Assembly (NCBI GenBank): GCA_035221665.1
Contig: CM069149.1
Coordinates: 40,424,001-40,488,000, forward strand
DNA from: Okamejei kenojei
Taxonomy: Eukaryota
Length of the DNA stretch: 64,000 nucleotides
Direction of reading: 5' to 3'
Shown: positions 2,540-60,195 of the stretch, piece after piece
Layout: each line of letters begins with the position of its first letter
How positions within the stretch are numbered: the stretch's first letter is position 1
The notes under the pieces: model-generated
What the model was told of the DNA's origin: nothing
The model's input: only the letters and a program-made list of their open reading frames with translations
The model's database searches: none
Program-made: the position numbers and the translations under genes

Positions 2540-2815
2540 TGTGTAAGAAGGAACTGCAGATGCTGGTTTAAACCGAAGATAGACACAAGAAGCTGGATAA
2601 ACTCAGCGGAACAAGCAGCATCCCTGGAGAGAAGGAACGGGTGCCGTTTCGGGTCGAGACCCTTCTTCAGACTGGTTAGGGATAAGGGAAACGAGAGATA
2701 TACTGTGGACGGTGATGTGGAGAGATAAAGACCGATGAATGAAAGATATGCAAGAATGTAACCATGAGACAGGAAACAGGCCATTGTTAGCTGTTTGGAG
2801 GGTGAAGATGAGAAG
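2540..2815 (-). mobile_element. Penelope-like element terminal repeat fragment with degenerate hammerhead motif
   Basis: Reverse complement contains CTGAAGAAGGGTCTCGACCCGAAAC and the CAGCATCTGCAGTTCCTTC tail shared by the other copies. Confidence 0.75.
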
Positions 2816-3381
2816 GGTTTGTCGGGTCAGGCAGCATCGTTTAGAACAATGGAGAGATGACCTTTCCGATTGGGAACTTTCCTTAGTTCGAAGTTGTTAA
2901 ACCAGCTAAGTTCCTCAGAGGACAAAAAGTCAGAAGACCCGTGTGCATTTAAATAAAGGATAACTCAGTAGCTTTTTCTAGATCCCTAACAATATACTGG
3001 CACTATATTCCGAGGACATTCAACTTTCCTGGCAACTTTAAGACCAGAGATTTTCTTTTCAGCAACTAATATTCCAGTGCAGTTAGAATTGAAGAAAATT
3101 ATTGGAAATTAACATGTATTGATGTTAAATGCTACGTGCATTTGTTTTAATAGTAAAAACTGTAATTGATTCTGTTGTTCCTGGTGAAATATGAAAATGA
3201 CTTCCCTTTCCAGTATATTGAACTGTACTTATATTTCAAGTACATGTTTTATAATAGGAATAGGAATACTTTATTGTCGCGTGACGAGGCACAGTGAAAT
3301 TGTTTGCTTGCACACACAATGTATACAATAGCTACAAGAGGCACAAGATCTTTTTTTTTTAATGGTTTGTGTTTACTGCAG

Positions 3382-3508
3382 CTCTTTATGGAATCTGGAA
3401 AAAAAAACACACGAAGGTCATATCGTTAAAAACGAGGAACTACAAACATTCCTGAAACCAATTTTTAACCAAGGTTCCCCGAACGTTGTGCTATTTCTTC
3501 AGAATGAG
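3382..3508 (+). CDS. ATP6AP1-like: ATP6AP1-like exon 2
   Basis: tgcag|C...GAG|gttagt; SLWNLEKKTHEGHIVKNEELQTFLKPIFNQGSPNVVLFLQNE, matching Ac45 DLW...THEGHI...NVLLFLQDK. Confidence 0.93.
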
Positions 3509-3604
3509 GTTAGTGAAGGCTATTTATAACATCAAAGTTTATGCCACAGTTTTTGTTTAGTGCACTGTGATGTGTACTCCTTGACCCTTCTGTTTGCTTC
3601 ATAG

Positions 3605-3673
3605 CTTAGTGTTGAAGATTTCACACAGTATGGCCCTGAAAATGGAGATGATGAAACATTCGGCAATGTACAG
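3605..3673 (+). CDS. ATP6AP1-like: ATP6AP1-like exon 3
   Basis: catag|CTT...CAG|gtaaat; LSVEDFTQYGPENGDDETFGNVQ (Ac45 LSIEDFTAYG). Confidence 0.93.
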
Positions 3674-4129
3674 GTAAATATGGCCATGCTACTGTCAGTT
3701 GCCATTTGGCTGAATATGAAATTGAACTAATGTAAGTGGAGTTGAGGTTTCAACACTTGTAACCACCGGTTATAAAGTCAAAAACATACTGTAGTTTCTG
3801 TCCTGAGAATTCCATTACATTGCAATAACGTGTGAAAGATATTTAAAAAAACATTAAAAATGGGAGAACAAAATCGCATTGCATTTGTATAGATCCGTTC
3901 ATTTAGTTTAGTTTTGTTTAGAGATACAGCATGAAAGCAGGCCTTTGGCCCATCGAGTCTGTGCCGACCAGCGATCACCTGTACACTAGTTCTGTCCTAC
4001 ACAGAAGACAATTAACCTACAAACCTGCATGTTTTTACAATGTGGGAAGAAATCAGAGCACCCAGATTGTCCTTTCTTGTTTTACCCAGAATCTGCAGTT
4101 CTTTGGTTCTACCATTTGCAGGCATCTTT

Positions 4130-4262
4130 ACAGTCTGAAGAAGGGTCTCGACCCGAAACCTCACCAATTCCTTCTCTCCAGAGATGCTGCCTGTCCCACT
4201 GAATCACTCCAGCATTTTGTGTCTATCTTCGGTTTAAATCAGCATCCGCAGTTCCTTCTGAC
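4130..4262 (+). mobile_element. Penelope-like terminal repeat with hammerhead-like core (4135-4162)
   Basis: CTGAAGAAGGGTCTCGACCCGAAACCTC directly upstream of the Penelope RT remnant. Confidence 0.75.
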
Positions 4263-4283
4263 ATGTTTATTTTATTGATATCA

Positions 4284-5778
4284 TAGACCCATTGTTTCTG
4301 CTGGTTCTTGTCCCACCTAACTTATTTCCACATATCTCGACTACATCCTATCCCCCCTAGTCAAATCCCTCCCAACCTATGTCCAAGACACCTCACACGC
4401 TCTTTGTCTCCTTCATGACTTCCGTTTTCCAGGCCTCCCACTCCCTCATCTTCACTATGGATGTCCAGTCACTCTACACCTCTATCCCCTACCAGGAGGG
4501 TCTTAAAGCCCCCTGTTTCTTCCTCGACCGTAGAACCAACCAATACCCGTCTATTAATATTCTCCTCCGAGCTGGTCCTTTTCCTTTGACTCATCCCATT
4601 TCCTCCAAATCCAAGGCGTAGCTATGGGCACACGCATGGGCCACAGCCATGCCTGCCTCTTTGTAGGGTACGTCGAACAATCCTTGTTTGAGGCGTACCG
4701 TGGCCCCATCCCCGAACTCTACCTTCGCTACATTGATGACTGCATTGGTGCTACCTCCTGCACCCATGCAGAACTCACTGACTTCATCCATGTTCACCAC
4801 TAACTTCCATCCGACACTCAAATTCACCTGGACCTCTAGACCTCATCATCTCCATCGCAGGTAATAGACTACTGACCAACATCTACTACAAACCCACTGA
4901 CTCCCATGGCTATCTGGACTATACTTCTTCCCTCCCTGCTTCCTGTAAGGACTATCCCCTACTCCCAATTCCTCCGTCTACGCCACATCTGCATTCAGGA
5001 TGAGGTGTTCCAAACCAGGGCATTGGAGATGTCCTCATTCTTTAGGGAACAAGGGTTTGCCTCTTCGACTATAGTATCTCACCAGGGTCTCCTCTATATT
5101 CCGTAGCTCCACTCTCACTCCCCATCCCCCCCAACTCATAACAAGGACAGAGTCCCCCTTGTCCTCACCTTCCACCCTACCAGCCATCACATACAACAGA
5201 TAAGCCTCCAACATGTTCGCCACCTACAATGGGATCCCACCACTGGGCACATCTTCCCATCTCCTCCCCTTTCTGCTTTCCGCAGAGACCATTCCCTCTG
5301 TAACTCCCTGGTCAATTTGTCCCTTCCCACCCAAAGCACCCCCTCCCCTGGTACATTCCCTTGAAACCTCAGGAAATGCTACACTTGTAGCTTTACCTCC
5401 CCCCTCGACTCCATCCAAGGACCCAAGCAGTCTTTCCAGGTGAGGCAGAGGTTCACCTGCACCTCCTCCAACCTGATCTATTGCATCCGCTGTTCCAGGT
5501 GTCAACTGCTCTGCATCGGTGCGACCAAACGCAGGCTTGGCAATCGCTTCGCCCAACACCTCCGCTCAGTTCGCAATAACCAACCTGATCTCCCTGTAGC
5601 TCAGCACTTAAACTCCCCCTCCCAAATCCGACCTAAAAGTCTTTATTTTGCTTGGGTGGTTTACACCCTAACTGTATGAACATTGACCTCCAATTTCAGG
5701 TGGGCTGCCTCACCGCTGAGTTTCAGCTTTTTTTGTCTACCTTCAATTTTTCCAGCATCTGCAGTTCTTTCTTGAATA
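4284..5778 (+). mobile_element. Degenerate Penelope-like retroelement (RT plus GIY-YIG endonuclease)
   Basis: RT motifs IFTMDVQSLYTSIP, GVAMG and LRYIDD (about 4720-4740); TIPYSQFLRL; GIY-YIG-type NLIYCIRCSRCQLLCIGATKRRLGNRFAQHLRSV. Many frameshifts. Confidence 0.9.
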
Positions 5779-7661: not shown

Positions 7662-8851
7662 GCATTGATCAAATACATGGACTGCTAAGTCTATGACGCG
7701 TAACCAGATTTTTCAAGACAGAATAAGATCGTCATGAATTCAGCATTTAAAAACTGATGAATAATGAAAATGAGTTTTCTCATTTTATGTATCTGGTCAC
7801 TGATGCAGCAGATGTCACTGCCAACACTGATTAAGATGAATGATTTACCTCAATTAATCCAGGTTTAAACACAACCTACAAGAGACTGATTACTCATAAA
7901 CTGTGAAATGTTGTATCAGCTAACTTTCTAATCTATGACAAATCATTAAGTCAACTACTACAAGCAAATATTCCTTGCTGTGGCGGCACAGGTAACTGGG
8001 TACACCTCTCCTTTGGTCAAGTTCCACTTATGCAATGAGGTGTGACTGAAGTCTTTACCTCAGGGTGGCTACGTTACATGTAGGGAAATGAAAAATGGCT
8101 TGCAAGGTATCACGGGCTGCACATTAGATGATAAGGTAATAAGTGATAGGCCATTCGAGCCATTCTACTCTGCTATTCAATCATGGCTGATCTATCTCTC
8201 CCTTCTAACCCCATTCTCCTGCCTTCTCCCCATAACATTGGGCCAGAATGTCTGCTGCCCGCACTATCTCTATAACGACACTTACTTTTTTTTTGGTCTA
8301 ATGGAACCAAACATATTTTCAAGCCTTGAGCAAAACACAAACTGCTGGAGGAACTCAGCGGGGCAGGCGGCATCTGTGGAGGGAAATGGATATATGACGT
8401 TTCGGGGTGGGACCTTTCATGAGTCTGAAGATGGGTCAAGATGTGAAAGGTCACCTGTGCGTTTTCCTTCACAGATGCTGGCAGACATGCTGAGTTTCTC
8501 CAGTGCTTTGTGTTTCGCTCAAGGTTGCAGCACCTGCAGTTACTTGTGTCTCCAGTTTTTTAAGACTTGTCGCCACTGCTGTGTTTTAAAGCGATGTGGT
8601 TTGTGAGCAGTGACGGGGCATCAAGTGTTGGATCCCATTACCATGTGCTCAAACCAGCCTGAGGGCCCTTGACAGGTTTAGACTTTAGACTGGAGATACA
8701 GTGAGGAAACAGGGCCTTTAGCCCACTGAGTCAGTGCCGACCAGCGATCACCCCATACACTACCACTGTCCTACACCCTAGGGACATTTTACAATTTTAC
8801 CAAATCCAATTGACCTAAAAACCTATATGTCATAAGATCATAATTGATAGT

Positions 8852-9250: not shown

Positions 9251-11491
9251 ATAGGCCCCAGTGGCTCTTTGGAGTGTGGGAGGAAACCGGGGCACCCAGA
9301 GAAAACCCACGTGGTCACAGGGTGAACATACAAACTCCGTACAGACAGCACCCGTGGTCAGATTTGAACCCAGGTCTCTGGCGCTGTAAGGCAGCAACTC
9401 TACTGCTGCGCCACCGTGCCGGCCCTTATTGGGGGTCAATAGACAAGTTCAAAAACAGTTAAATATATTTTATTATGCAAATATGAAAAATTATATTAAA
9501 ATAACAAATTTAGTTAAAATACATTTAAGTGATAGAAATGAAAAACATTGAGATTTAAAAAAATAAATAAAGAAAATCACTTGCGTAGGAAGGAACTGCA
9601 AATACTGATTTATAACGAAGATAGACACAAAATGCTGCGGTAACTCAACGGGTTAGGCAGCATCTCTGGAGAAATGGAATAGGTGACATTTCGGGTTGGA
9701 CTCTCAATCTGAAGAAGGGTCTGGACCCAAAACGTCACCGATTCCTTTTCTCCAGTTATGCTGCCTGACCCGCTGAGTTACTCCAGCACTTCGTGTCTAC
9801 TTTAAAGAAAACCAATTTGATCCTTTTCATTTTGGGTTGACAATCCCATTAGAATGGGCGGGACAACATTAGAAATGCCAGCCTTGGCTGACAATTAGTT
9901 GAGAAGCTGGATGTGAATTGCATCTGAAGGAAAGAGACAAAGTGATGGGAGTAACTCAGTGGGTCAGGTCGCATCTCCGGAGAACGTGCATAGGTGACGT
10001 TTTGGGTCAGGACCCTTCTTCAGACTTCCCTTCCGGCCTGCAGCTGAGTCTTCTGAGTTAAACCCTTAGACAATGCTGATGGTCCAGTGTGGGTCGAGAG
10101 GTTATATGTGCCAGCATCTCAGTGTATTTCAATTTAGTGTATTGTCATGGTACCGAGGTACAGTGAAAAGCTTTTGTTGCGTGCTAACCAGTCAGCGGAA
10201 AGACAATACATGATTACAATCGAGCCATTCGCAGTGTACAGATACATGATAAGGGATTTACGTTTAGTGCAAGGTAAAGCCAGTAAAGTCTGAAAGGAGA
10301 TCAAGAAGATCATAGTTAAAGTAAGAAATATTGCTGTAGATGCAGAAATTCAAATATGTAGAGCGATTGTAATATGTGATTGTAGATCAGCTTCTGTGGC
10401 CAGCAGGCACATAGTCGCCTGGGTTGGGCACCATCTTGGTCCATTTCAGCTCAACTCAGCGCAGGCATAGAAGTCAGTTCGTTCGCTCGTGGGTCAGACG
10501 ATGTATAGCTCGCTGTTGGCTTCTGTCGTCGTCCAACATGTTGAGAGAATTGGTCGCCGTTTCTGAGGATCGCCGCGAGGAGGCTTCTGTCATGATCTCC
10601 ACAGAGGTCAGTGACAAGTGTGTTACTGCACGCCTTTGTGTCAATTAGCTTGGAGCTTCTTACTGCAAGCTAACGGAAAACGGCGAGGGAAAGAAAAGAA
10701 TCTTAGCAATTGTTACTACTGGAAGGGGTTTCAACTGTTCCTTCCCAACCCAATTTACTTGAAGCTTTTATTCTGATTTATCTACAGATCAGGCACTTAT
10801 TTAGTTTGAAACAACAGAATCAATTTGAAAGGGAGTCAAAGAAAACTCTGTTCAGGAATGTATTAAGTAATCATGTAATATGAATCAAGCAAGATGGCAG
10901 CGACTTCACTGTGATTTAATAGGTGATGCATCAATTCAATCGCAGTAATGGAAAACAAACTTTCAGATGCAGCTGAAGAACAGGAACATAATGGGAAAAA
11001 AAATGTATAGTCTGGAAATCCGATTAGACTGGCAGCACAACTTTTAATTAATTTAAACTTATTTTATTCTTATGTATGTGGTGTTGCTGGCAAGGTTAGC
11101 ATTCGTTATCTATCTCTAATTGTTCTTGAGTGGCCCAGCCGTAGAGTTGCTGCCTCACAGCGCCAGAGACCCGGGCTCAATGCTGACTACTGGTGCTGTC
11201 TGTACGGAGTTTGTACGTTCTCCCCATGACCACACGGCTTTTTTCCCGGTATAGACAGTACAGTGATGGTGTCAAAAGTTGTATCTAATATCCAGCTAAG
11301 GCTTGAGCTAAGACTTCTGAAGATTCAGAATGAATGGGTATTTTTACATTGATTTCCTCTAATTACAATCAAATATTACACACATGTATTTAGTCAGTTT
11401 TAAAGAAGGAACTGCTGGAGAATCGAGGGTACACAAAAAGCTGGAGAAACTCAGCGGGTGCAGCAGCATCTAAGGAGCGAAGGAGATAGGC

Positions 11492-11724: not shown

Positions 11725-12276
11725 GTTTCACCAAGGCCTGCTGGATCTCCTGGTTGCTATCTGCGTTAACGCATCTTCCCATTCACATACTGACCTTGCT
11801 GCCCTAGACCTCCTCCATTGCCAGAATGGAGCCACGTGTAAACTAGTGGAATAACCTCTCATGTTCCGCTGGACATTGAATTCTCCAATTTTGGATAGTG
11901 CCCCCTTTTCTTCCCCCACTCCACTCTTTGCCCCACTTGGGCTTACATCCATTTCTCTCACAATCTCGGCCAACTTTCTCCTTCCCCTTCATCCCCTTCC
12001 ACCTTCCTCTGGCTTCACATTTCTCACTTCTTCTTTCTTTACCTCACATTCCATTGTCTTTTTATCTCCAGCCTTTGTCCACCCATATCCCAGTCAACCC
12101 CATCCCCCCCCCCCCCCACCCCCATCTCCTTCCATAACCTGTCACTTGCTGGACTTTGACCCACCCCAACCTTCTTCAGTCTGAAGAAAGGTCTCAATCC
12201 CAAACGTCACCCATTCCTTCTCACCAGACATGCTGTCACACCTGTTGAGTTACTGCCCCATTTTGTGTCTATCTTA
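11725..12276 (+). mobile_element. Old Penelope-like 3' fragment
   Basis: Degenerate endonuclease C-terminal region, pyrimidine-rich spacer and CTGAAGA...AAACGTCAC motif at 12181-12210. Confidence 0.7.
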
Positions 12277-12623
12277 ACTTATTTGTTTGGGACACCGTTT
12301 CTTACCTGACCCAGGCATAATATACACATGTATAAATGCACCAATCTTCATTATAACAATGCTTTGGGCCAAATGGTTTACTTATCCTTTTTGCATTGGT
12401 TTTGCTATATTTTTAATGGATAAATCAAATATAATTTAGTTGTTCAATAGTGCTTTATTAGTCACAGATGCAACTGCACAGTAAAATTATTTTTGAATAT
12501 ATTTTACATGCAGGCACTGTCTTTATTGGCGCCTGCATGTGTAATATATGCAAAGACGGGTCGACCCGCGTGCTCTATGTACTGGAGCAGTTTCCGCGAA
12601 TACCCTCTCCTCTCCTTACTTTA

Positions 12624-14972: not shown

Positions 14973-15519
14973 ACAAAACCAGAAAAAATACAAATATTTC
15001 CAGTATTCATATTCATCAGCCCGATACCAAAAATAAAATTATCCGCTGAGTTACTCCAGCGCTTTGGGTCTTTTTTTATAAATCAGCATCTGCAGTTCCT
15101 TGTATCTAAAATAATCACTGTTCCTTTACACATTTTCAAGTGGATAGGTTCATTCTTTGCTGTTAATGATGCTGTTTTTTCAAAAAAAGATGATAATGAT
15201 TATGTTGGTTTTAAGACTTTCATTCCTCCTGGTAAAATTAATGAGGGCCTTCTCAGTAGATGTTTCCTTAGCTGCACTGATCAATTATCACACTTTGTAA
15301 TTTGATGCTGCACTCCTGTGATAAACTGCCTGGTTTTTCAGAGCTACTGCATCCTTTAAACAGCTCGTGAATCAGTTGTTTTTCTCCCTCCATTCACCCA
15401 CTCGTGTTCAGTCGCATTCCTTTAAATACGACTGATTTTTCGTGTTGATTATATCATCCCCACTTGACAAACTCGAATGTTGCTCATTATTAACTAACAA
15501 ATGAAATGTTTAATTTTTT

Positions 15520-18024: not shown

Positions 18025-18562
18025 TTGAGTATTGTGTTCAGTTCTGGGCACCATGTTATAGGAAATATGTTGTCAAGCTGGAAAGGGTACAGAGAAGGTT
18101 CACAAGAATGTTGCCAGGACTGGAGTGTCTGAGCTACAGGGAGAGGTTGAGTAGACTGGGACTCTATTCCTTGGAGCGCAGGAGGATGAGGGGTGATCTT
18201 ATAGAGGTGTACAAAATCATGAGAGGAATTGATCGGGTAGATGCACAGAGCCTCTTGCCCAGAGTAGGTGAATAAAGGACCAGAGGACATAGGTTTAAGG
18301 TGACATGGAAAAGATTTAATAGGAATCTGATGGTTCACTTTTTCACACAAAGGGTGGTAGGTGTATGGAACAAGCTGCCGGTGGGGGTTGTTGAGGCTGG
18401 GACTACCCCAACATTTAAGAAACTGTTAGACAGGTACATGGACAGGACAGGTTTGGATGGATATGGACCAAATGCAGGCAGGTGGGACCAAGTGTAGCTG
18501 GTACATTTTAGCCGGTGGGGGCAAATTGGGCCAAAGGGCCCGTTTCCACGCTGTATGACTCT
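18025..18562 (+). mobile_element. CR1/HER1-type LINE 3' fragment
   Basis: EYCVQFWAPCYRKYVVKLERVQRRFTRMLPGL...LYSLERRRMRGDLIEVYKIM. Confidence 0.9.
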
Positions 18563-18963
18563 ACATCACCATCTATATCTCTCGGTTCCCTTTCCCCCCA
18601 CTCTCAGTGTGAAGAAGGGTCGCGACCCGAAACGTCACCCATCCCTGCTCTCCAGAGATGCTGCCTGTCCCGCTGAGTTACTCCAGCCTATCTTCGGTTT
18701 AAACCAGCATCTGCAGTTCCTTCCTACACATAGATTCATTGAAAGCTTGGCTTGCAGCATGGTCGAATTAATTCTTCATCCTCACTCTAATAAAAAAACG
18801 AAATGATCTTGTTATTTACATTTCTCGTGGTATGGCGAAGATTTAGATATTGGTTTAAATATGCAAAAAAAAAAGTGTCATTTCGTGAACAATATATATT
18901 AGTTTTGTTTAAGATTGCCACTCAAGATTAAAAAAAAGTCATTTGTCTCTATCTTATGAACAG

Positions 18964-19004: not shown

Positions 19005-19668
19005 GTAAGACTGATTTTGATGTTACGTTTTTTTTTGGCTAAGACGAAACTTACTGTCGTTGCCCACCCAGTAGGTTTGATAGATCAATATTCTATGGAG
19101 CATTATAAACATTGTACATTTGAAGCTGGATGAAATGCTTTGGTTTAGATATTGAATTACGTGCTGCTGTTTTTGCGTAGCTCGTGCTTAAATGGGAGTC
19201 ATTTGCAAAGGTAAATTGGGGATATAAATGTGAATATTATAAAGTTAATAATGTTCTTCCATGCTTCTATTGTGCTAATGCCTGATACAATTGGTGTATA
19301 TATGCACCTGAATTATATTTGTGATTATTTATCTCATATATTTGTGGCCAATGAACAGATTCAACCGTAAAAGCATTCATTGTGCTTGTGAGATCTATTT
19401 TAATAGACTTACAATGCTTGAAAACTAAATTGGATCGAGTCATAGAATCATACAGGGTGGAAACAGGCCTCCTTGGCCCAACTTGCCCGCTCTGGCCAAC
19501 ATGTCCCATCTACACCAGTCACACCTGTCTGTGTTTGGCCCATATCCATCCAAACCTGTCCTACCCATGTACCTGTCTAACTGTTTCTTAAACGTTGGGA
19601 TAGTGCCTTACAGTGATGGAGATGGGAGGCCTTATAGTGAAATACTTACCTAGTACTGATGTTTTTAT

Positions 19669-19850: not shown

Positions 19851-20034
19851 ATTGATGTTTCTATCATTTGAGCTCCCTAACCTTGTTGTGACCCTAAGCT
19901 ACTTACCCATTCTCACCTGATAGCCATGTGAGCATGTCCACTCACCCCGCCCTTCTCCATTCATACAATCCCTCACCTGATCCATCTAGTGATATGCTAT
20001 TCATCCTTCCACCTATTTGCTTTCTGAATACCTA

Positions 20035-43345: not shown

Positions 43346-46084
43346 TTTTTGCCACCAAAGAGCAAGGCCCTCAGAATAAAATATTCAGGCAATAGAATAG
43401 GTACCCAAAAGGTATAAGTACCCAAAGGCAACTGTCAGGACCCTAGTGCAGTGGGTGACATTAGAAATGGAGTCATGCAGAATATTGCTGGTTCATTCTC
43501 ACTTGCACTTAAGCAGTAAATGCTTGCATTTGCGAGTTCACGTTGTAGGAGTAGAATTAGGCCATTTGGCCCATCGATTCTGCTCCGCCATTCAATTATG
43601 GATGATCTCTGCCTCTTAATCCCATTTTCCTGCCTTCTCCCCAGAACCCTTGACACCCGTTCTAATCTAGAATTTGCCATCTCTGCCTTGTCGAAAATAT
43701 TGCCACCACTTGCTAAACAATTGCATTGACCAGTCAGGTCAATTGGTCTATATTGTTCCTTATTGTGAAGAATAAGTCTTCAGAAGTGACCCAACCCTAA
43801 ATCATTCCCTGTCCATGTTCTCCGGAGGTGCTGCCTGACCAGTCGAGTTACTCCAGCACGTTGTGTCTTTTTTTTTGTAACCCAGCATCTGCAGTTCCTT
43901 TTTTTCTACTTGTTGCTTATTCTGTTGGATAAGGAAAACACAACAATTCCAACCAACCACTCTGGCAGAGTTTAGTTTAGTTTAGAGATATAGTGCGGAA
44001 ACAGGCCCTCTAGCTCACTGAGTCTACGCCCACCAGTGCTCCCCGCACACTAACACACTTCTGCTTCTGCTTGCTACTGCACAACTGCCAACAGCTGGGC
44101 AATCTCGTGCAGGTTTCGCTCGCATGGGCACTGGTTGCAAAAAGGGTTATTTAGATTTTTATGTGGGCAGGTTTGGTGAGATGATCCATGTCCAAGTTGT
44201 CGAGCTGTGACTTGAAGAGTGACAAGGCTGGTGCACATCTGGTGGTGTCGGGAAGGATGCTCCACTCTGGGATAGGCCATGGATATAGTGACTGTAGATA
44301 GCTATTTTTGTTTGCTCTAATTCTATTATTAGATAAAATTACCTACAAATTGTCTTGTAGATTTCTGGGTATTGGATTGAATGAGGTGAGATATGTTACT
44401 GGGGATGTTGCCATGAGTCTCCTTGTAGACAGTACGTAAGTGGGCTTTGGTGTGTTTTGACTCCAGTGACTCCCAGCCAAGGCCTACACGCACTTGTGAC
44501 AATTTACAATTATACCAAGCCAAGTAACCTTTGGAGTGTGGGAGGAAAACTGGAGATCCCGGAGAAAACCCGCACAGGTCACGGGAAGAACGTGCAAACT
44601 CCGTACAGACAACGCCTACAGTCAGGATCGAACCTGGGTCTCTGGCACTGTAAGGCAGCAACACTACCGCTGCACCACCGTGCCACAATGGAGAAAGCCC
44701 AGGACAGAAAGGTCAGTAAGGGAATGGGAAGAGGAGTTAAAATGGTTAGTTATGTGTCCTTTTATGTAAACCAGCATCTGCAGTTCCTTGTTCCTACATT
44801 ATTAGAAATAAGTTCCTAGTGGAAACTCCATCAACTTTAAGTATGCAACACCACAATCTGCTTTATGGATTATATATGACTGCCCTATTGAAAAGAAAAA
44901 CTAGTACTTCAATCTAGGATACAGATGACATAGCGTAGATAGATAAATTCATCCCAAAACTCTGTAATCCTGTGCGTAAAAGTGGGCGGCACGGTGGCGT
45001 AGCAGTAGAGCGTCAAAGACCCGGGTTCGATCTTGACTACGGGTGCTTGTCTATACGGATTTTGTACGTTCTCCTCGTAACCTGCATGGGTTTTCTCCGG
45101 GATCTTTGGTTTCCTCCCACACTCCAAAGACGTAGAGTTTTGCAAACGAATTGGCTTGGTATAGAAGCAAATTGTCCCTCCTGTGTGTAGGAGAGCGTTA
45201 GTGTGCGGGGATCGCTGGTCGGCGCGGATTCGGTGGGCCAAAGAGCGTGTTTCCGCGCTGTATCTCCAACCTAACCTACACCAAGTTCAAATGGTGATTT
45301 GACCCTTTGCGACCCACATACCTCCACCTAGCTCAATTTTCTTGCAAGGGTTCATTGAGATATAACTGCTCTTAACTCCCATTTATTCCAATGCTATTTA
45401 TAACGCTCTTGGGACATGGTGAAACATCTCGTTAAAATCCGTCAACATCATCTCTTCGACACTCCTTGTTGACTCCTCAAATACTTCAATTAAATCGTTC
45501 AATTGTGACTTTCCCAGGGTTAATCTAGATTTACCTGCTGTTGACTCATGGTACTCTGCTTTCAACAGCCCCAGTAAGTTTGGTCTATCTTGATAAAGGA
45601 AATATAGAGCTATTTAGAAAGGGGACACAAAGCATTCTTTTTGGAACAGCTTGTATCAGTAAATCACTCCCTTTATTCTCGAGACATAGATTGTTTGAGT
45701 TATGCACACCAGATTCAAAGAATTCCACAGGATAGGCAAACCTGCAAAAATTCCTAACTGTTTCAGAGCCTGATCGGTCGTCTTCTAATTTTACTCAATA
45801 AGGAGCCATTCTTTTGTAAAATGTAAAATATTTGAGGAAGGGAATTTTTTTTTCATCTTGCAACAGCGCTATTAAATCATTCTCCTTGGAACAAACCCAT
45901 TTGGCCCAGCAATGTATTTTTTAGGGGTGATTGAGGCTGGATAGGATTGCACTGTGGTAGAATAAAGACACTCCTGTGCACTGTAAATCACAAGCACTCT
46001 CTCTCTGTTCATTGTGGAGACTTTTGCCAGCTCCTTGAAACAAGGTAAAGTTAGCAAGGTGGATGGTGTTTTCTTAATTTTCAA

Positions 46085-47245: not shown

Positions 47246-48772
47246 CTTCCTACAACAAAACAATGACATTCTTACTTGCTGCAGCTTAACAGGCCGGTAA
47301 ACGCAATGACAACATTGTTACATAATACTTAAAATACTACAAATGAATACCGTGATATCAGGGACCCGTTATCATGTAAAAACCGAAGTCCGTAGTGCAA
47401 GCGAGGGCTCAGTTCACAGAAGGGATAGCATGGTGGTGCAATGGTAGAGCTGCTGGCGCACAGCACCAGAGATCTGGGTTCAAACCTAACTACGGGTGCT
47501 GTCTGTGTGGAGTTTGTGCGTTCTCTCTGTGACCACGCGGGTTGTTTCCGGGTGCTCCGGTTTCCTTCCACATCCCAAAGACGTGCTGGTTTGTAGCTGA
47601 ATTGGCTTGTGTAAATCACCCCTAGTGTGAAGAACTGGTGTGTGTCTGATCGCTGGTCAGCGTGGACTCAGTGGGCCGAAAGGCACGTTTCCCCGTTGTA
47701 TCTCGAAACTATCCAAACTCTCTAAACTCTAAAGGTCATAGATGCTGATGTTAGTGCTGTGCAGTGTTCAAGAGCCTGATGGTTGTTGGGAAGAAGCTGT
47801 TCTTGAACCTGGTGACCATGGTTTTCAGGCTCCTGGACCAACTTGTCGATGGGAGCAGGGAAATGAGAAAACGTCCAGGGTGGTGTGGTTCTTTGATGAT
47901 AATGGGTACCTTTTGAGGCAGCACTACTAATAGATCCCTTTTACGGTGGGGAGGTCAGTCCCTGTGATGGACCAGGCAATATGTATCACTATAGTCTACT
48001 ACACTCCTGGGCATTCCAATTACTGAACCAGGCCGTGATGTACCCAGTTAGTGTGCTCTCCCTGAACCACCCTTGTAACATGTACAAAGTACCAATTTGC
48101 TGGCTTGTTTTCCAAAGAAAAAAAGGTTGGACATTTTACGAAAAGTATTTGTGTCGCGGGGAACTGCAGATGCTGGTTTAAACTGAAGACAGACACTAAA
48201 AGCTGGAGTAACTCAGCAGGTCAGGCAGCACCTCTTGAGAAAAGGGACAGGTGACGTTTTGGGTCGAGACCCTTCTTCAGACTGAGAGTCAGGGGAGAGG
48301 AAAACGAAATATAGACAGTATATGAATGGAAGTTATGCAAAAAGCAATGATAATCAAGGAAATGTGGTCCATTGTCAGCTGTGGGATAAGTTATATCGAG
48401 TTATACAGGTCGACAGTAAAACTAGTGCGGCAACTAGTGCGGGAAATGTATGAGGTTGGCCAATGCTATTTCAGCCAGAAATACTTTGCAGAATTACAAT
48501 GTTTTCACACAAGATTGTGCAGTGCATTTCAGTTCAGTTTATTGTCACATGAACTGAGGTACAGTGGAAAGCAAAATACATAATTAAAATAAGATAGTAA
48601 ATCAATAGTATTGCAATAAACAACTGAGAACTTGCCCTTTCATCAGAGATTTAGCAAATGGGCATCTAATTAACAAAGATTAATTTTCAACCAGCTCAGG
48701 GGTCGAGTTCTATTATTTGTCACTGAGCCAGCTGGAGGGGAGGTGTGTCTTAAAGATTAACTCGTGAAGCAC

Positions 48773-48933: not shown

Positions 48934-51535
48934 GTAAGAGATTTGTTGGCCAAATATCTACTGCGCTAAATAGACTTGTTTTGCTTTTCCACCTTTGCTG
49001 CTATTAATCTTATGGTCAGCATAATGGTCAGCATTATGTTGAAATGATCTTTTCTACATCACGGCAGCTTGCCAACAGACTACTTTCTCTATGAGGGACC
49101 ATTAATGCAGGGATTTATTTTTAAGATGATTTTAATTTTGATTTCAGCACCATCTGCGTTATATTGTACCATATTGTCATTTATATTGTCATTTCCAGAT
49201 TTTAAAAAAAAATGTTGAAGGTAAATGTTCTGGTAATGCAAAATCATCTCAAATCAAATCTATGAAATCAAAACAAAATGATATTCTGAAATGTAATTTT
49301 CAATTCCCTAATACAGACTAGGCAAACAAAGAAGTGTATGTCCCGGTCCCAAGATCAAGTGTTTTAATTACATTTTGTGTTAAAAAGTATTTTAAAATGT
49401 CAATGGCAACACCAATTTGAAGGGTCTATGGTCAATAAGGTTTAGTCTACTTGCCTGAGTTGTCTCCTGCCTTCTTCTATGCTCACTGTGATACACTTGT
49501 CACTGTCACCTAGTCCAATTTCTAGATATTACTGGACTGTGAGTTTCATGAAACCTACAGCTCGAAATCATGATAATCGATAAAGGGCAGCGGGGTGGTG
49601 CAGCGGTAGAGCTATTTCCTTACAGCGCCAAAGTCCCAGGTTCAACCCTGACTACGGGTGCTGTCTGGACAGAGTTTGTCCGTTCTCCCCGTGACCTGCG
49701 TGGGTTTTCTCCAAGATCTTCGGATTCCTCCCACACTCCCAAGACGTACAGGTTTGTAGGTTAATTGGCTTGGTATAAATGTAAATTGTCCCTAGTGTGT
49801 GTCGGATAGTGTTAATGTGCGGGGATCGCTGGTCAGTGCAGACTCATTGGGCCGCAGGGCCTGTTTCCGTGCTGTATCTCTAAACTAAACTAAACTGCAG
49901 AATGGCAATAGATTCCACAAGATACTCCACCTACTTTACTAATGCAGCAAAGACACAGAACACAATTGGGCTGTATCTCTAAACCAAACTAAACTAGAAA
50001 GTCAATTCTTAATGAATGAATAGAAATGTCTTTTATTTTTTTGGGGGTTAAAGTGTTGGCATGGGATCGGGGGATGTCGGGTGTCATGGCTGTTGTGACT
50101 GTGTGCTGGGATTATCTGGTACAAATATACCTCTCTTTATTTAAATTCTTTCTGGTAGCTGATTTTCACAAAAGAGAAGCCTTCTTGACTTGTTGCGACT
50201 CAAACAGTGCTTGAATACAGAAAATGTTTTGAAGCACAATATTTTGTGTACAAGGAAACTGATACCGGGATGCATTTTCAACTGAGCCTTGCCTGGTCCA
50301 AGGTTCTGAAGTTTTCAAAGCTGAATGGAAGTCAACTTACACAGCTTTGAATTCCTGATTCAAGGAATTGTAACAAGCAGACTGACACTGATCAGGTTTG
50401 CAACCAAAGAAGGCATACGTAGAGCATAGAACCGTACAGCATAGGCACAGGCCCGCAATGTCGAACAACTAATATCCTCTGCATGCACGTGTTCAAAATT
50501 GACGGTCCCTTTGTGGAATTGACGGAAGTGACAGTGGGTGGGAATGGAAAGTTGACGTTTTGGGTTGAGACCCTTCTTCAGAATTCTCCAATCTGTCGCT
50601 CCTATTGATAGCAGATTTAAGAAGGTCCTTCCCTGGATGAAACCGCTTCTGAACTTTGAGAAACGTGGTTGGGTTTAGAGAAAAAAGGAAACAATGACAA
50701 AACCAAACATTGGTAACTCTGGTGTACCTTTTCAAAGCAGCTCTATGCAAAAGTAGGTATCTTTTTATAATACGGACATTTAGGTATAACATGAAAATAT
50801 GTATTCATTGAGATTCTCAAATGAAAATCAAGTGAGTTCTGGCCAACTGGTAATGAAATTGATTTAGCTCACTGCAACATCTAAAATCAAACTAACTGCA
50901 TGATTTTGCAGTCTCTTGCCCAGAGTAAGTGAATCGAGGACACGAGGACATAGGTTTAAGGTGAAGGGGAAAAGGTTTAGGAGGAATGTGAGGGGTAACT
51001 TTTTCACACAAAGGGTGGTGGGTGTATGGAACAAGCTGCTATAGGAGGTAGTTGAGGCAGGGACTATCCCAACGTTTAAGAAACAGTAGGACAGGTACAT
51101 GGATAGGCCGGGTTTGGAGGGATATGGACCAAATGTGGGCAGTTGGGATTAGTGTAGTTGGGACATGTTGGTCAGTGTGGGCACGTTGGGTCAAAGGGTT
51201 TGTTTCCACACTCTGTCACTCTATGACTATGATTTATGACCAGCTGCAAACTTTCTGATTTGGATTTGCATGTCTGGAATTCGCTTTCTTAAAATTATTC
51301 AGCAAAATTAAGAAGTCAAGAATTCACAGAATCTTTTTTTTTGGGAGCAAACTTAATTCAAAGTTAACACTTGGAGGGTTGAACTGCAGAGTTCTGTTGA
51401 TGTTATAGTGGCGATGGTTAGTTCATTGATGATACAGCAAGTGAATCTCAGGAATAACAAAAACAGCTCTATCTTTTTTTGAATTTGCAATTGATATTGA
51501 TTCTACTGTTTGTTATTCTCTCTCCTGGTCAAAAG

Positions 51536-51665: not shown

Positions 51666-52233
51666 GTGAGTTACGGTACAAACCTTATGCAAATGAACAC
51701 TCCACTAACAAGCAAAACAAAGATTAGTCTGAAGAAGGGTCTCGCCCCGAAATGCCACCCATTCCTTCTCTCCAGAGATGCTGCCTGTCCCGCTGAGTTA
51801 CTCCAGCTTTTTTGTGTCTATCTTCAGTTTAAAGCAGCATCTGCAGTTCCTTCCTGCACAAGATAAGGGAATAAAATTTAGTGCATGGTAAAGCCAGTAA
51901 ATAGTCTGAGGGTCACCAATGAGGTAGATAGTAGATCAGGGCTGCTCTCTAGTTGCGGTACGATGGTTCAGTTGCCTGATAACAGCTGGGAAGAAACTGT
52001 CATCTGCGATCGCGCATTACAATAATTCCGCTCTTTTAAATCTCCATCCCGACAGCAACATTTCTTCTGTACACTGTGGATGGATCAATAGTATCATGTA
52101 TTTTCTTTCTGCCAACTGGTTAGCACACAACTAAAATTTCTCGCTGTATCTTGTGACTATAAACAAAACTAAATTAAACAACAAAAATGTAAAACAACAT
52201 TGTCCCAGATAATGTGGTCAGGAGCAAGGTAAC

Positions 52234-52477
52234 TTCAGATAGCCCTTGCCTTTTCTCTCCATTCCCTTTCCATTTCCCATTCCCCCACCAGTCTTACTGT
52301 CTCCGCCTACATTCTATCTTTGTCCCGCCCCCTCCCCTGACATCAGTCTGAAGAAGGGTCTCGACCCGAAACGTCGCCCATTCCTTCTCTCCAGAGATGC
52401 CGCCTCACCCGCTGAGTTACTCCAGCATTTTGTGTCTACCTTCGATTTAAACCAGCATCTACAGGTCTTTCTGACAC
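52234..52477 (+). mobile_element. Penelope-like 3' fragment with 11-bp TSD
   Basis: AGCAAGGTAAC duplicated at 52223-33 and 52478-88; contains an intact hammerhead core. Confidence 0.8.
52348..52375 (+). ncRNA. Minimal type I hammerhead ribozyme core (intact, sense to the SLC13A1-like pre-mRNA)
   Basis: CUGAAGA-A-GGGUC-UC-GACCC-GAAA-CG-UC. Confidence 0.72.
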
Positions 52478-53515
52478 AGCAAGGTAACGACTTTTGTTGT
52501 TAACTCTAACAAATGCTTATTTTGGCATTGGTTATAGACTTTCTCCATTATGATGTGACTTAGATTTGACACCATCAGTGACACTAAACAGCTTTGTTTA
52601 ATGCAAGACTGGTTTAACAGTCAATTAAGATTGGCCAGTTTTCATAGGCAAAAATGCAGTCACTAATTTATACTGTCGTACACAAGCGAAATTAAGTGGG
52701 ATGTAAAAAAAAGACACAAATAGAAATATTAACTTAAAAAACCCCAATTAATTTTAAGATTTTAATAATTGTTGATTTTTTAATGTTTTGAGTTCTGAGA
52801 GAGTCCACATTTATAAACTATGTTTAATAATAATAATAAGATATTTTATTGTCATTACACCTAAATGCAACGAGATTTGGTTTGCAACTTCCATCTGATG
52901 TCATAACTTAATCGACAAATAAAATTTAGGTTTAGATACCCCGAGAACAAGGTTTGTAAAACGAACATTAGACCAGTAAAGTCAAAACAGACTAAAGTGC
53001 AGATGTGTCTGTGCGACGTGACCACCCGAGTTTTCAGGGCAATAGAGAGTGCTCAGCAATAAAAATGTCTTGGGATTCCATTAAAACCCGATTCATCTTA
53101 TTCAACAAACTTTAACCTGTTTAAGAACTTTTACAGCAAAAATAGCATTTAAGGATTGGGTTTCATGTCAATTCTCTGCTTCTCTGCTAATTAAGTGCTT
53201 GAGAATTGCCAGTGTATGTACTGTACATAGAGGGTAATGTCCCAATTTCTTTGCATCATTGTTCCTGAAAGACTGATGTGGCTATAGGCTTTGGACATTA
53301 ATAAGTGCATACTATTCAGCTGCCATTACCATCGCAGATTCTAGACCCACAATTTAATTAACTTTAATTAGCTGGTCGGCGTGGACTCGGTGGGCCGAAG
53401 GGCCTGCTTCCGCCACGTATCTCTAAAGTTCATTGCATTCAACTTTGCTAAATATGAGATTAATTATTCTGTGGAGCCTTTCTGGTTTTGCATCACCTTG
53501 TTCTACATTTAACAG

Positions 53516-55242: not shown

Positions 55243-55826
55243 ATTGGGTGAGATCAAACGTAGACTGGGCGATCATTTGACACCTTCGTTCTGTCCATCT
55301 GGACCTAACTGATCTCCTGTCTTCTAAGCATTTTAACTCCCCCTCCCATTCCCACACTGACCTTTCCGTCCTGGGCCTCCTCCACTGTCAGAGTGAGGCC
55401 AAACGCAAATTGTAGGAACAGCGCCTCATATTTCGCTTGGGCAGCTTACACCCCAGTGGTATGAATATTGATTCCTCTAACCAAGTAACCCTTGTATCCC
55501 CCCCCCTCTCTCCATCCCTCCCCCACCCAAGTCGTATCAGCTTCAAAGTTGTTTTGTTGAGTCTCATTATCTGTAACTCATTCCTATCTAGCTCACAGCT
55601 AACGATGGCCTGTTTCCTTTATCATCGTCACGTTTTTGTATATCTTTCATTCATTTGTTCCATATCTCTTTACATCTCCGTCTATATCCCTGCTGTTCAT
55701 CATTGTTTCCCTCTCCCCTGACTCACAGTCTGAAGAAGGGTCTCGAACCGAAACGTCACCTATTCCTTTTCCCCAGAGATGCTGTTCGACCCACTGAGTT
55801 ACTCCAACTCTTTTGCGTCTATCTTC
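55243..55826 (+). mobile_element. Penelope-like 3' fragment (endonuclease C-terminus plus terminal repeat, hammerhead core 55730-55757)
   Basis: IGEIKRRLGDH...HFNSPSHSHTDLSVLGLLHC...LIFRLGSLHPSGMNID, then CTGAAGAAGGGTCTCGAACCGAAACGTC. Confidence 0.85.
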
Positions 55827-56122
55827 TAATTAAGGATTGCTCTGATGTGCGGAACAAATAATGTGAGCCGAAGTGCCTGTTCCTGTGTTGAACTGTTCTA
55901 TGCTCTGTGACAAATAACAGGCTGCGCATGATGAGAACCTGTGATTCAAATCCTTTCAGAAGACAAAATAAAATGCGCAAATAAGCGTTTCAATGTTGCG
56001 ATGAGTTTTCACTATATCTGCGAATACCACAAAGTGCAAACGACCTCGCCGATCGCGGTTCTAGCAGATTGACTTCACAATTGATGATGTTATCATCCTC
56101 TGATACATTTGTCTCATAACAG

Positions 56123-56159: not shown

Positions 56160-57139
56160 GTTTGCAATGATTCACTGTAACTAGTCTGCAAGCCAAACGA
56201 CATTTGAGTTTACATTGTAAAATTGCTGCTTTGACATGCGTGTCAGATTTTAATTGCGACTCAAATGTGCTGCTATCGAAGATTACATACTATGCCCTTC
56301 ACATTTCAATTGTAGCATGAGTCATAAATTATAGGGCAATACATTAAGATAGACGTTCGAAAAATGTGAAGGAATTTGCATATTTAGTGGTTTAATAATT
56401 TGTCTACAATGCCTTTCACTATCCCCTTCCATAGTCTTATGTGACTTTATTCAATGGAAAGATGCATTAGTTTGGCTTTGGTTCAGTTTAGCAACGTAAC
56501 ACGGAAATTTGCCTTTTTGGCCCATTGAGTCCATGTTGACCATCGATCACCCATTCACACTAGTTCTATGTTATCTCATTTTTACATCCACTTAGGTTAA
56601 GTTTGGTTTGGTCTACTTGGGTTTGGTTTGGTTCAGTTTAACAAAGCAGCACAGAAATTGGCCCTCTCATCCCACTGAGTCCATGCCCAACATCGATCAC
56701 TGGTTCACACGCGTTCTATGTTATCCCACTTTCTCATCCACTTCCGACACACTGGGGGCAATTTTTGCAGCAGCCAATTAATTCACGGACCTGCACGTCT
56801 TTGAGGTGGGAGGAAAGTAGAACACCCAGAGGAAACCCAAGTAGTCACAGGGAGAATGTGCAAACTCCACACGGACAGCACCCAAGGTCAGGGTCGAACC
56901 CGTGTCTCTGGTGCTGTGAGGCAGCAGCTGTGCCAAGATACCACCCATAATTCCAGTTATAGTTTGGATGTCAATTTAATTCCAATTACACTTGCTTTAA
57001 CTTTCTCTAAGAACCCATTTGGGAGGTCAAAGGTTCATGCTCAAGGAGCACTTAGGCCATTTGGCACATCTTTCCCTCTCAACCCTATTCTCCTGCCTTC
57101 CCCCCATAACTCCTGACAGGCGTATTAATCCAACATTGA

Positions 57140-57947
57140 AACATAGACATAGAAACATAGAAAATAGGTGCAGGAGTAGGCCATTCGGCCCTTCGAGCCT
57201 GCACCGCCATTCAATATGATCATGGCTGATCATTCAACTCAGTACCTGCCTTCTCTCCATATCCTCTGATCTCTTTAGCCACAAGGGCCACATCTAACTC
57301 CCTCTTAAATATAGCCAATGAACTGGCCTCAACTACCTTCTATGGCAGAGAATTCCAGAGACTCACCACTCTCTGTGTGAAAAATGTTTTCCTCATCTCG
57401 GACCTAAAGGAATTCCCCCTTATCCTTAAACTGTGACCCCTTGTTCTGGACCTCCCCAACATCGGAAACAATCTTCCTGCATCTAGCCTGCCCAACCCCT
57501 TAAGAATTTTGTACGTTTCTATAAGATCCCCCCCTCAATCTTCTAAATTCTAGCGAGTACAAGCCGAGTATATCCAGTCTTTCCTCAAATGAAAGTCCTG
57601 ACATCCCAGGAATCAGTCTGGTGAAACTTCTCTGTACCCCCTCTATGGCAAGAATGTTTTTCCTCAGATTTGGAGACCAAAACTGTACGCAATAATCCAG
57701 GGGTGGTCTCACCAAAACCCTGTACAACTGCAGTAGAACCTCCCTGCTCCTATACTCAAATCCTTTTGCTATGAATGCCAACATACCATTAGCTTTCTTC
57801 TCCGCCTGCTGCACCTGCATGCCTACTTTCAATGACTGGTGTACAATGACACCCAGGTCTTGTTGCAGCTCCCCTTTTCCTAATCGGCCACCATTCAGAT
57901 AATAGTCTACCCTCCTGTTTTTGCCACCAAAGTGGATAACCTCACAC
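57140..57947 (-). mobile_element. CR1-type LINE fragment
   Basis: CEVIHFGGKNRRVDYYLNG...DLGVIVHQSLK...[23 protein letters not shown]. Confidence 0.9.
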
Positions 57948-59186
57948 ATGTGTCAATCTCTGCCCTAAAAAGCATGAAGCTGCAATTTCTTATAGTTTCA
58001 TAGCTTCTTTTACCCAGCATCCATGCATACTCTAACTAGAACTCGGCCTCAATAGGACAAGCTAATGCTAGACACAGTCAGCCCAATCTGCCATTTGCAT
58101 TACCACCTGGCCTGTGCAAAAGTTATCAATCGGTCTACTGACACGTTAGTAGTTTAGTTTGGTTTAGAGAAACATTGTGGAAACAGGCCCTTCGGCCCAC
58201 CGAGTCCGCACCTACCAGCAATCCCCGCATATAAACACAACCTTACGCACACTAGGGACAATTTACATTTACTCCTAGCCAATTAAGCTACAAATCTGTA
58301 CATCTTTGGAGCGTGGGAGATCTCGGACTCCATATAGACAGCACCTGTAGTTGGGATCGAACGCGCGCTGCAAGGCAGCAACTCTACCGCTGCGCCACCG
58401 TGCCTCTCTAAAAAGTACCTGGAATGTTAACTGTGTTTCTTTCTCCACCAATGCCACCTGACATGCTGATTATTTCCTGAATTATTTTGTTTTAATTTCT
58501 GCATTTGCAGTAGATGTCTCACTGATTGTGTTTGGCTGCCCAGTCATTCTATTGGTGAAGATATTCAAGAATGCAAAATCGAATCAGAAGAGGTAACTAA
58601 TTTTCCTAATAACACTTGCTTAACTTGAATTACAATCCCAATCCTCTGTTTTGCTGTCAGTCTTAAGAATTCTACCATTTTGGCTGTGAAGTTGTAAACT
58701 TGCAAGTTTAATTTCTTTCTTGGCATCAGATTTCTTCCATAATTAAGCATTCCCTTCTGCCCTGAGATTGTTCAATATGGAACATTGGTTCACTCGATTG
58801 CTCAGTCTTCTGAAATGAACTTGAATTTTGGCAAACTATTCGAATATAGTTGTATAATGGTTGCTTCAAGATTTGTGTAGTTCTGAGATACAACACGGAA
58901 ATAGGCCCTTCGGCACACTGAGTCCACATTGACTAGCGATCACCTCGCACACTATCACTATCTTACACACTGGTGGGAAAAATGTACAATTTTTACCGGT
59001 CAATTTGCCTTCAAACCTGTACATCTTTGGAATGTGGGAGGATGCGGGAGATCCCGGAGAAAACCCAGGCGGGTCGCGGGGAGAGCGCACAAACTCCATA
59101 CAGACAGCACTTGTAGACAGGATTGAACCCGGGACTCTGGCTCTGTGAGGCAGCAACACTAATGCTGTGCCGCCGTGCCCCTATAA

Positions 59187-59577
59187 AGCCCCTGTCCCAC
59201 TTAGGAGACCTAAACAGCAACCTCTGGTGACCTTGCCCTCCACCCAAGATTTCCATAAAGTCACCGGAGGTTTTGGTCACTCTCCCTAATGGTCGAAAGT
59301 GGTTTCTGCATGGTCGAGGCTTCATCTAGGTCGCTGCTATTTTTTCAGCATGTTTAAAACCGGCCTCGACTAAAAATAGGTTGCCGTTTTAAAAATCGAT
59401 CAATTTTTTAGTCGCAGGTCTTGTCGAAGCCACTTTTCTTCATAGTTGAGGAAGGTTTTCAACATATGCGTGGGAGGTGGTAGGAGGTTGCAGGTTACCT
59501 CGACCTTGATTTTCTTTTTGGGTGACGGGCAAGGTCACCAGAGGTTGCTGTTTAGGTCTCCTAAGTGGGACAGGGGC
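59187..59577. mobile_element. PIF/Harbinger-like MITE with 51-bp perfect TIRs
   Basis: GCCCCTGTCCCACTTAGGAGACCTAAACAGCAACCTCTGGTGACCTTGCCC (59188-59238) is exactly inverted at 59527-59577; TAA on the left flank. Confidence 0.88.
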
Positions 59578-59765
59578 GTCACCACCTACAGTCCATTTGT
59601 ACAAATTCCAGTACTAATAGAGTAGAGAAGTCTGTTTTTATCGTTTCTCGCCAGTGCAGAAAAATGTAAAGCACTTAAGACATTTGGGATCTTCTGACCA
59701 TTGCACCAGCATGGTTTAACTAACCCATCACAGATCTGAAGCCATCCCTGCTCCATTTTTCCAAG

Positions 59766-60195
59766 TGTGTAGGAAAGAACTGCAGATGCTGGTTTAAATT
59801 GAAGATAGACACAAAATGCTGGAGTCATTCAACGGGCCAGGCAGTCTCTCTGGAGAGAAGGAATGGGTGACATTTCGGGTCGAGACCCTTCTTCAGGCTG
59901 ATGTCAGCGAAGTTGGGGGTACATAGGTAAGGAAGTGTAAGATGTGAAAACACGATAAAGGGAATGGAGATCAAGGAAAATGTAGAATAGATGATTGTTA
60001 GTTGGGAGAAGTTGAAACAACAAAGCAAACAGATAAAATATAGTCAGAGACAGTAAGACTAGTCAGAGAACTGGGAAGGGGGAGGGGATGGAGAATGAGG
60101 GAAAGCAAGGGTTACTTGAAGTTAGAGCTGGGTTGTAAGCTGCCCAAACAAAATATGAGATGGTGTTCCTCCAATTTGCGCTGGGCCTCACTCTT
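59766..60195 (-). mobile_element. Penelope-like 3' fragment
   Basis: Reverse complement matches the 55243-55826 copy, including the hammerhead-like motif at about 59868-59897. Confidence 0.8.

Follow-up and report, generated by a model that had tools for sequence, protein, structure and literature searches.

A 64,000-nt stretch of the genome of the skate Okamejei kenojei (contig CM069149.1, positions 40,424,001 to 40,488,000, forward strand; hereafter the window, numbered from its first letter) carries a family of short repeats that is the 3′ pseudo-long terminal repeat (pLTR) of Neptune-type Penelope-like retroelements (PLEs), present in several subfamilies and as truncated insertions. The repeat unit is 100–135 bp long, and a minimal hammerhead ribozyme motif forms its head. 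Judged from their sequences, the copies are neutral remnants made from uncleaved RNA and do not constitute a working ribozyme family, because the core has decayed as its flank has and shows no covariation beyond that of shuffles. We assign a probability of roughly 0.8 to this explanation as a whole, comprising PLE pLTR remnants, neutral decay and the route of transposition drawn from the Anolis element. Statements from the literature refer to the available parts of the works cited.

Identity and abundance of the repeat

The 28-nt motif occurs 13 times in the window at ≤3 mismatches and in none of 100 shuffles, and a looser hammerhead pattern matched six times in the window and never in shuffled sequence. 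A profile hidden Markov model (HMM) of the repeat gave 39 matches; with four weak ones dropped (2886, 20622, 44753 and 58417), 35 arms remain in 28 insertions, which occupy 5,189 bp (8% of the window) at one insertion per 2.3 kb, mostly within introns. The core from C3 to N17 is spanned by 20 of the 35 arms, in line with the 'about 20' motifs of a preliminary description of this DNA; all 14 coordinates named there carry a copy, 13 of them at ≤3 mismatches and 12181 with >3. A CTGATGA...GAAA match at 6889 lies outside the repeat, has neither helix I nor palindrome, and was discarded as a chance match. The 527 copy, which had seemed to start three bases before C3, was likewise rejected in that form, the part concerned being target DNA.

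Endonuclease (EN) sequence, 3′ untranslated region (UTR) and motif are collinear in the insertions at 55247–55831 and 60194–59769, which places the motif in the pLTR and, together with the target duplications, bears out the Penelope-like origin put forward in the preliminary description. The same description had linked the motif physically to reverse transcriptase (RT) and GIY-YIG remnants at 4284 and 55243. At 4284 this link is one of neighbourhood: the motif at 4135 lies upstream of a 5′-truncated RT–EN copy (4284–5773) whose own 3′ end (5698–5773) has lost the hammerhead. The coding part of that copy (4284–5690) is 44% identical over 366 amino acids to homologue P0015 and shows a YIDD motif, GIY-YIG with CCHH and a C-x4-C-x2-C linker; RT followed by GIY-YIG with CCHH, the arrangement by which EN+ PLEs are recognized, is thus present. 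The Pfam GIY-YIG match is below the cut-off (E = 0.018), and the first cysteine of the linker is now a stop, the linker being intact in homologues P0001, P0015 and P0021.

A CX2-5CxxC linker is found in Neptune and Nematis and is lacking in Penelope and Poseidon (PMC8557442); among vertebrate PLEs, Neptune and Poseidon are recorded in the available text of a recent preprint and Nematis is not (bioRxiv 10.64898/2026.07.22.740005). Published Neptune elements (PMC8557442; PMC3846280) resemble the skate element in their C-terminal GIY-YIG with CCHH and their linker, in an inverted 5′-truncated arm, in the 30–40-bp tail at one end that is a PLE signature, and in target duplications of about 8–10 bp. 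They differ in that the skate window holds no full-length copy and its flanks show no microsatellite targeting. A conserved open reading frame (ORF) beginning inside the repeat was considered and rejected, because the subfamilies differ there by 2 nt. Between 4068 and 5773, three same-strand pieces of different subfamilies stand in a row (a tail remnant, a short copy and the RT–EN copy), possibly through insertion into the element's own end.

Genome-wide, 216,280 of 21,777,634 contigs in run X1 and 183,164 of 14,890,344 in run X9 match a 331-nt stretch at ≥85%. Together with the density of one insertion per 2.3 kb in the window, these figures suggest 10^5 to 10^6 copies, an estimate rather than a count; summed read depth over the repeat does not equal copy number and was not used as such. 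The skate number is probably far above the ~4,000 hammerhead motifs given for coelacanth and the ~9,000 given for Xenopus (PMC4209133). The very large genome-wide family foreseen in the preliminary description therefore holds for copy number, as the 216,280 contigs of X1 indicate, but is not supported for working ribozymes, one arm in 32 being whole.

Structure and decay of the hammerhead motif

The motif fits the published consensus of minimal type I hammerheads (CUGANGA-H, an extra base, a helix II with G10.1–C11.1, GAAA and UH), and its helix III is a palindrome (A15.1-C-G-U16.1 in the copy at 52348 and in the majority of arms), as had been recognized from the outset. The short helix I and the cut predicted after C52375 stand as well: helix I has only 2 bp, and 82.5% of its cells are paired. 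Helix II, previously drawn with 5 bp and a 2-nt loop, is corrected to 4 bp with a CUCG loop, the former structure being implausible for RNA.

The minimal hammerheads of metazoan PLE pLTRs, known from fish Xena, Poseidon and Neptune elements, share with the skate motif CUGANGA-H, G10.1–C11.1, GAAA, the palindromic 15.2–16.2 and UH, as well as the position in the pLTR and the occurrence mostly as solitary truncated copies and opposite-strand pairs (PMC4209133). Their helix I typically has 3–5 bp, against 2 bp in the skate, with 2 bp also given for D. virilis, Culex and Oikopleura; a helix II of only 4 bp sets the skate motif apart, and no cartilaginous fish was found among the available entries of Fig. 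S3 (PMC4209133).

Thirty-two of the 35 arms were aligned, those at 5698, 15042 and 61974 being omitted with the motif absent or too degraded. All features are retained in one of them, at 52348, and both core boxes together with UH in eight. The preliminary description had called two copies intact, 52348(+) and 11492(−); the latter has a perfect core but, since it starts right there, a helix I of 0 bp. No hammerhead appeared among the 25 matches of an Rfam scan of the window at E ≤ 10. With 10 subfamily-variable flank sites and two misaligned rows left out, non-CpG mismatches amount to 17/247 in the core and 146/1489 in the flank (p = 0.16). Nine of 29 arms have lost G12, which lies in a CpG, as has about 14% of the depth in runs X1 and X9; CpG changes number 29/116 in the hammerhead and 24/110 at other CpG sites. 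Covariation amounted to one two-sided change in 120 cells, values as high as those observed being reached in 122–215 of 500 shuffles, over only 20 close copies. At metagenome loci L001–L003 there is no hammerhead downstream of the endonuclease match, and hence no cross-clade covariation. Excess conservation or covariation of helix II and core, on which the preliminary description had staked its ribozyme reading beforehand, thus came out null in the window. Differences between subfamilies do fit the fold, consisting of U–A to U–G changes in the two helices, a C-to-U change at 17, and changes in loop II.

In predicted folds the core of the 52348 copy pairs with bases 35–50 nt downstream, 8 kcal/mol below the hammerhead fold, and in a predicted dimer the hammerhead fold reaches −6.7 kcal/mol against −19.8 kcal/mol for the best dimer; tertiary contacts do not enter into these energies, which are uncalibrated on known active motifs. 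Minimal motifs are described as giving no cleavage as monomers and low cleavage as dimers (PMC4209133), and in PAc, the Poseidon element of Anolis carolinensis, cleavage is protein-dependent and dispensable for insertion in an in vitro transposition system (PMC11167929). In the skate, one of 35 arms starts at the cut site, in the pair at 19668..19856; nearly all copies pass through that site, which argues that their templates were uncleaved RNA. In the contig runs X18 and X20, which may derive from RNA, depth is relatively higher downstream of the cut site, an observation left out of account here. Cleavage would probably be confined to source elements, in dimeric form or assisted by protein, the genomic copies being mostly dead.

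Insertion ends, tails and pairs

Measured from C3, the repeat has two 3′ ends, at +95 to +100 and at +120 to +135, and in contigs genome-wide loose 3′ ends are found at 52442/52443 (here and below, loose ends are those among 24 of 1,177 loose-end rows). Seven insertions are head-to-head pairs, and in 7/7 exactly one arm is tailed (P = 0.007 given 11 tailed among 20 singles). Target duplications have a null P ≤ 0.035 in six of the seven pairs (8–18 bp) and in 4 of 21 other units; a fifth low value among the latter, at 4270–5773, is tail matching tail and was not counted.

The PAc motif has the same GAAACGUC end as the skate motif, and PAc is alike in having two internal RT start sites, to which its tail is traced, a short way downstream of the hammerhead, in extension of both strands and in an uncleaved RNA template (PMC11167929). 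It differs in belonging to the Poseidon clade without a linker finger, whereas the skate element has the linker, and in a 3-bp helix I with an ORF that starts in helix II, whereas the 134 nt of the skate showed no conserved ORF; no mention of a 5′ pile-up at the core was found in the available text (PMC11167929). That each inverted pair has a single tailed arm supports the view that a Neptune-type element primes at two coupled sites in vivo. By analogy with the Anolis element, the RT–EN protein would nick both target strands, and cDNA would be primed at two internal sites, about 35 nt apart, on uncleaved RNA; the outcome would be single arms, or head-to-head pairs with one arm tailed. Non-LTR retrozymes, reported in one chondrichthyan, are likewise short pLTR-derived units with type I hammerheads, but they form tandem arrays, whereas skate copies are single or head-to-head, with no head-to-tail array of whole units among the 28 insertions in the window (bioRxiv 10.64898/2026.07.22.740005).

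At 38570–38590 (−), 21222–21235 and 43765–43775, the first 8–15 nt of the repeat are duplicated at the 5′ junction, as if RT had restarted once the template end was reached. The seven inverted pairs are hairpins with 70–130-bp arms, most of them intronic, and may give rise to double-stranded RNA, editing or small RNAs. In Rfam, three of them match precursor microRNAs below threshold; these matches were rejected as hairpin artefacts.

Clustering of 5′ ends at the core

Fifteen of the 35 arms start within 4 nt of C3, seven of them at the A at −3, whereas the adjoining stretches of 26 nt hold 3 and 7 starts (binomial P = 3e-7). The upstream flanks of these arms are unrelated (agreement 0.28 versus 0.30 at random), and at least four sequence types show such starts. 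Loose 5′ ends whose flanks are unrelated recur at 52345/52346, in 716 and 782 contigs of X1 and in 728 and 803 of X9. Because the loose ends share no sequence, spliced RNA carrying a common first exon was rejected as the source of the copies.

In copies that retain upstream DNA, the start site reads YCAGTC or nearly so, and an exact TATA lies at −29 to −32 in four of nine, which belong to one subfamily. TCAKTY is an initiator consensus, and TATA lies near −30 in general; the background rates are 2.2% for TATA and 0.14% of sites for TCAKTY, and because the long copies share ancestry the TATA and initiator counts are worth about one observation. An ACGT lies 27–30 nt past the proposed start. A TATA plus initiator is reported for a rotifer pLTR (PMC3846280), and Drosophila retroelements have a downstream promoter element, RGACGTGY, with an ACGT core. 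Among the PLE hammerheads listed in Fig. S3 of PMC4209133, many show YAG or TCAGT/TCATT a few bases upstream of helix I (fugu, Xenopus, snake, Nasonia, Nematostella and Drosophila), a pattern noted by eye with no control.

We tentatively propose, at roughly even odds relative to the alternatives, that the RNA begins with the A located three bases upstream of C3, a possibility suggested by the TATA near −30 and the TCAGTC resembling an initiator. The ACGT at +27 to +30 would then serve both as helix III and as downstream promoter element. Priming at the first pLTR would run off the 5′ end of the RNA after about 98 or 134 nt, the form in which copies are commonest; such run-off products would flood the genome and record both the RNA start and the two priming sites. 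The hammerhead itself would be a 5′-terminal, protein- or dimer-gated switch that clips a 31-nt capped leader. A literature search, mainly of listings, brought up no publication dealing with PLE hammerheads in batoids or with a pile-up of 5′ ends at the core; Fig. S2 of PMC11167929, which maps genomic ends, may hold a similar 5′ pattern, and the supplements of the retrozyme preprint (bioRxiv 10.64898/2026.07.22.740005) may list the present family for its one chondrichthyan.

Alternative explanations

Several points weigh against the explanation preferred here. The Neptune assignment derives from a linker motif rather than a tree, with the first cysteine a stop in this copy, and the window is without a full-length element bearing two direct pLTRs around a full ORF. 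When the subfamily-variable flank sites are kept, the core is better conserved (17/247 versus 246/1779; p = 0.004 in the first version of the test, which included these sites), an excess that may reflect selection in source elements; counted per site, subfamily-variable positions number 0/10 in the core and 10/62 in the flank, which is not significant (p = 0.34). The 5′ starts were curated by hand, and microhomology blurs several by 1–4 nt. At the cut site no loose end appears in the rows considered, which is not proof of absence. TATA is absent from the subfamily of 52348 and 59896 and exact in only four of nine long copies. Finally, the start site is also an excellent splice acceptor, with ≥75% pyrimidine before the AG in seven of nine long copies.

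This last feature gives rise to another possible, and equally tentative, account of the pile-up, in which the acceptor ends a 5′ UTR intron and bound splicing factors halt the reverse transcriptase on unspliced RNA. The intron of D. virilis Penelope ends at 491, with C3 at 496 (5 nt), introns are retained in PLE copies, and the published consensus is U-rich upstream (PMC4209133). Set against this are the TATA at −29 to −32 in four of nine long copies with a TCAKTY match at the modal start, starts that include the AG instead of beginning with the base after it, loose ends with no common upstream exon (agreement 0.31–0.33) and the speculative nature of an RT block by splicing factors. It appears unlikely that the 98/134-nt unit propagates itself from master copies of its own, as a non-autonomous element resembling a short interspersed nuclear element (SINE) or a retrozyme. 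Short units far outnumber coding copies, the retrozyme preprint derives such elements from pLTRs (bioRxiv 10.64898/2026.07.22.740005), and head-to-tail joints of 52435–52443 to 52343–52346 occur in 5–22 contigs each in X1, among the rows listed. Within the same rows these joints are rare for 216,280 contigs, and they do not fall at the cut site, unlike those of a circle made by a ribozyme; the short copies have no upstream TATA, and hot-spot starts spanning at least four sequence types must have arisen repeatedly.

Two further alternatives concern catalysis. The motif could be non-catalytic even in source elements, kept as a promoter or protein-binding element that looks like a hammerhead: helix I has only 2 bp, transposition in vitro is independent of cleavage (PMC11167929), and the ACGT 27–30 nt after the proposed start resembles the core of RGACGTGY. 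We regard this as quite unlikely, since the subfamilies differ at permissive sites (loop II, U–A to U–G, C to U at 17), none of the 10 core sites is subfamily-variable against 10 of 62 in the flank (though p = 0.34), and the Anolis motif with the identical GAAACGUC cuts with protein (PMC11167929). It is very improbable that the dispersed copies are working ribozymes cutting host transcripts. The copy number is very large, both core boxes and UH persist in eight of 32 arms, and one of nine Xenopus dimers was cleaved strongly in vitro; the other eight were not cleaved at all, and published minimal motifs cut weakly or need protein. One arm of 32 is whole, excess conservation and covariation were not found, predicted folds disfavour the hammerhead both at 52348 (by 8 kcal/mol) and in the dimer, and the pairs fold as long hairpins. 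Single arms in the two host genes lie nine sense and five antisense, so there is no depletion of the sense orientation.

Features and surroundings of the window

Table 1. Copies of the repeat in the window; positions such as −3 are relative to C3.
Feature	Position	Strand	Remarks
Only fully intact minimal hammerhead (predicted)	52345..52377	+	helix I 52346-47/52376-77 (2 bp); C3 52348; extra A 52355; helix II 52356-59/52364-67; GAAA 52368-71; palindromic CG 52372-73; predicted cut after C52375
Insertion around 52348: 3′ UTR, hammerhead, tail	52230..52478	+	11-bp target duplication; SLC13A1 intron, sense
5′-truncated: GIY-YIG remnant, 3′ UTR, hammerhead 55730 (helix II mismatch), no tail	55247..55831	+	8-bp duplication
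Tailed: endonuclease C-terminus, 3′ UTR, hammerhead 59896 that has lost helix I	59769..60194	-	weak 10-bp duplication
5′-truncated, frameshifted RT–EN remnant	4284..5773	+	3′ end 5698-5773 tailed, hammerhead lost
Short copy from −3, tailed	4132..4263	+	helix III palindrome broken
Copy with 135 nt upstream sequence, TATA at −29, tail	2540..2794	-	U16.1 mutated
Short copy from inside core	536..622	+	second subfamily: U-G at 10.4-11.4, U at 17
Head-to-head pair, one arm tailed	8335..8545	.	weak target duplication
Head-to-head pair, motif 9709, G12 mutated, one arm tailed	9579..9803	.	9-bp duplication
Short copy from −3, G12 mutated, no tail	9925..10026	-	
Intact core, no helix I, begins at C3	11403..11519	-	
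Copy with motif 12181, G12 mutated	12154..12277	+	endonuclease fragment upstream 11714-11869; 5′ limit uncertain
3′ fragment with tail, no hammerhead	15042..15101	+	
Copy with TATA at −32, C3 mutated, tail	18551..18730	+	
Head-to-head pair: arm from −3 (internal deletion), arm from about cut site	19668..19856	.	12-bp duplication
Head-to-head pair, both arms from near C3	21126..21366	.	15-bp duplication
Degenerate copy	24383..24496	+	13-bp duplication
Head-to-head pair, motif 26648	26534..26741	.	15-18-bp duplication; long hairpin, sub-threshold Rfam precursor microRNA
Head-to-head pair	34986..35208	.	8-bp duplication
Copy with duplicated 5′ start	38474..38590	-	
Copy, first half of core deleted	39623..39781	-	
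Tailed copy with helix II deleted; long upstream part, TATA at −29	40011..40304	+	
Degenerate copy from −3, tail	43775..43903	+	12-bp duplication
Copy with TATA at −30, TCAGTC at start site, G12 mutated, tail	48160..48383	-	
Fragment, G12 mutated	50540..50582	-	
Short copy from −3, U16.1 mutated, tail	51726..51862	+	
Old degenerate copy	61897..61974	-	
Head-to-head pair, both arms from +17	62104..62306	.	13-17-bp duplication

Two host genes lie on the + strand: an ATP6AP1-like gene (V-ATPase accessory subunit S1; about 3380–34942, six exon matches) and SLC13A1, from 48835 to 63080. Their best named matches are from skates, in keeping with a batoid host. SLC13A1 seems damaged: a 1-nt frameshift lies close to where exon 2 ends (about 51646), and the exon for residues about 77–120 has no match at 51660–53511 or elsewhere in the window; it is either a pseudogene or affected by an assembly error. 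Tolerance of the intact motif in an SLC13A1 intron is a weak argument, because the gene may be broken. A 179-aa frame at 6422–6961 (−), without a Pfam match, resembles what we take to be the start of a hAT-type transposase. Within-window repeats of all kinds cover about 40% of the window, among them a very abundant SINE-like family (for example 54900–55240) and 3′ ends resembling long interspersed nuclear elements (17934 and 57500).

Significance

The ribozyme as such is ordinary, belonging to a class described in 2014 and present here in decaying copies, although in size the family may rank with the largest sets of hammerhead motifs in a vertebrate. The unexpected trait is that copies tend to begin three bases before the ribozyme core, a sharp 5′ boundary that bears on where PLE RNA starts and on what the hammerhead is for. 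If true, the RNA-start reading would give PLE hammerheads a testable role and would provide a genome-scale map of a transposition intermediate.

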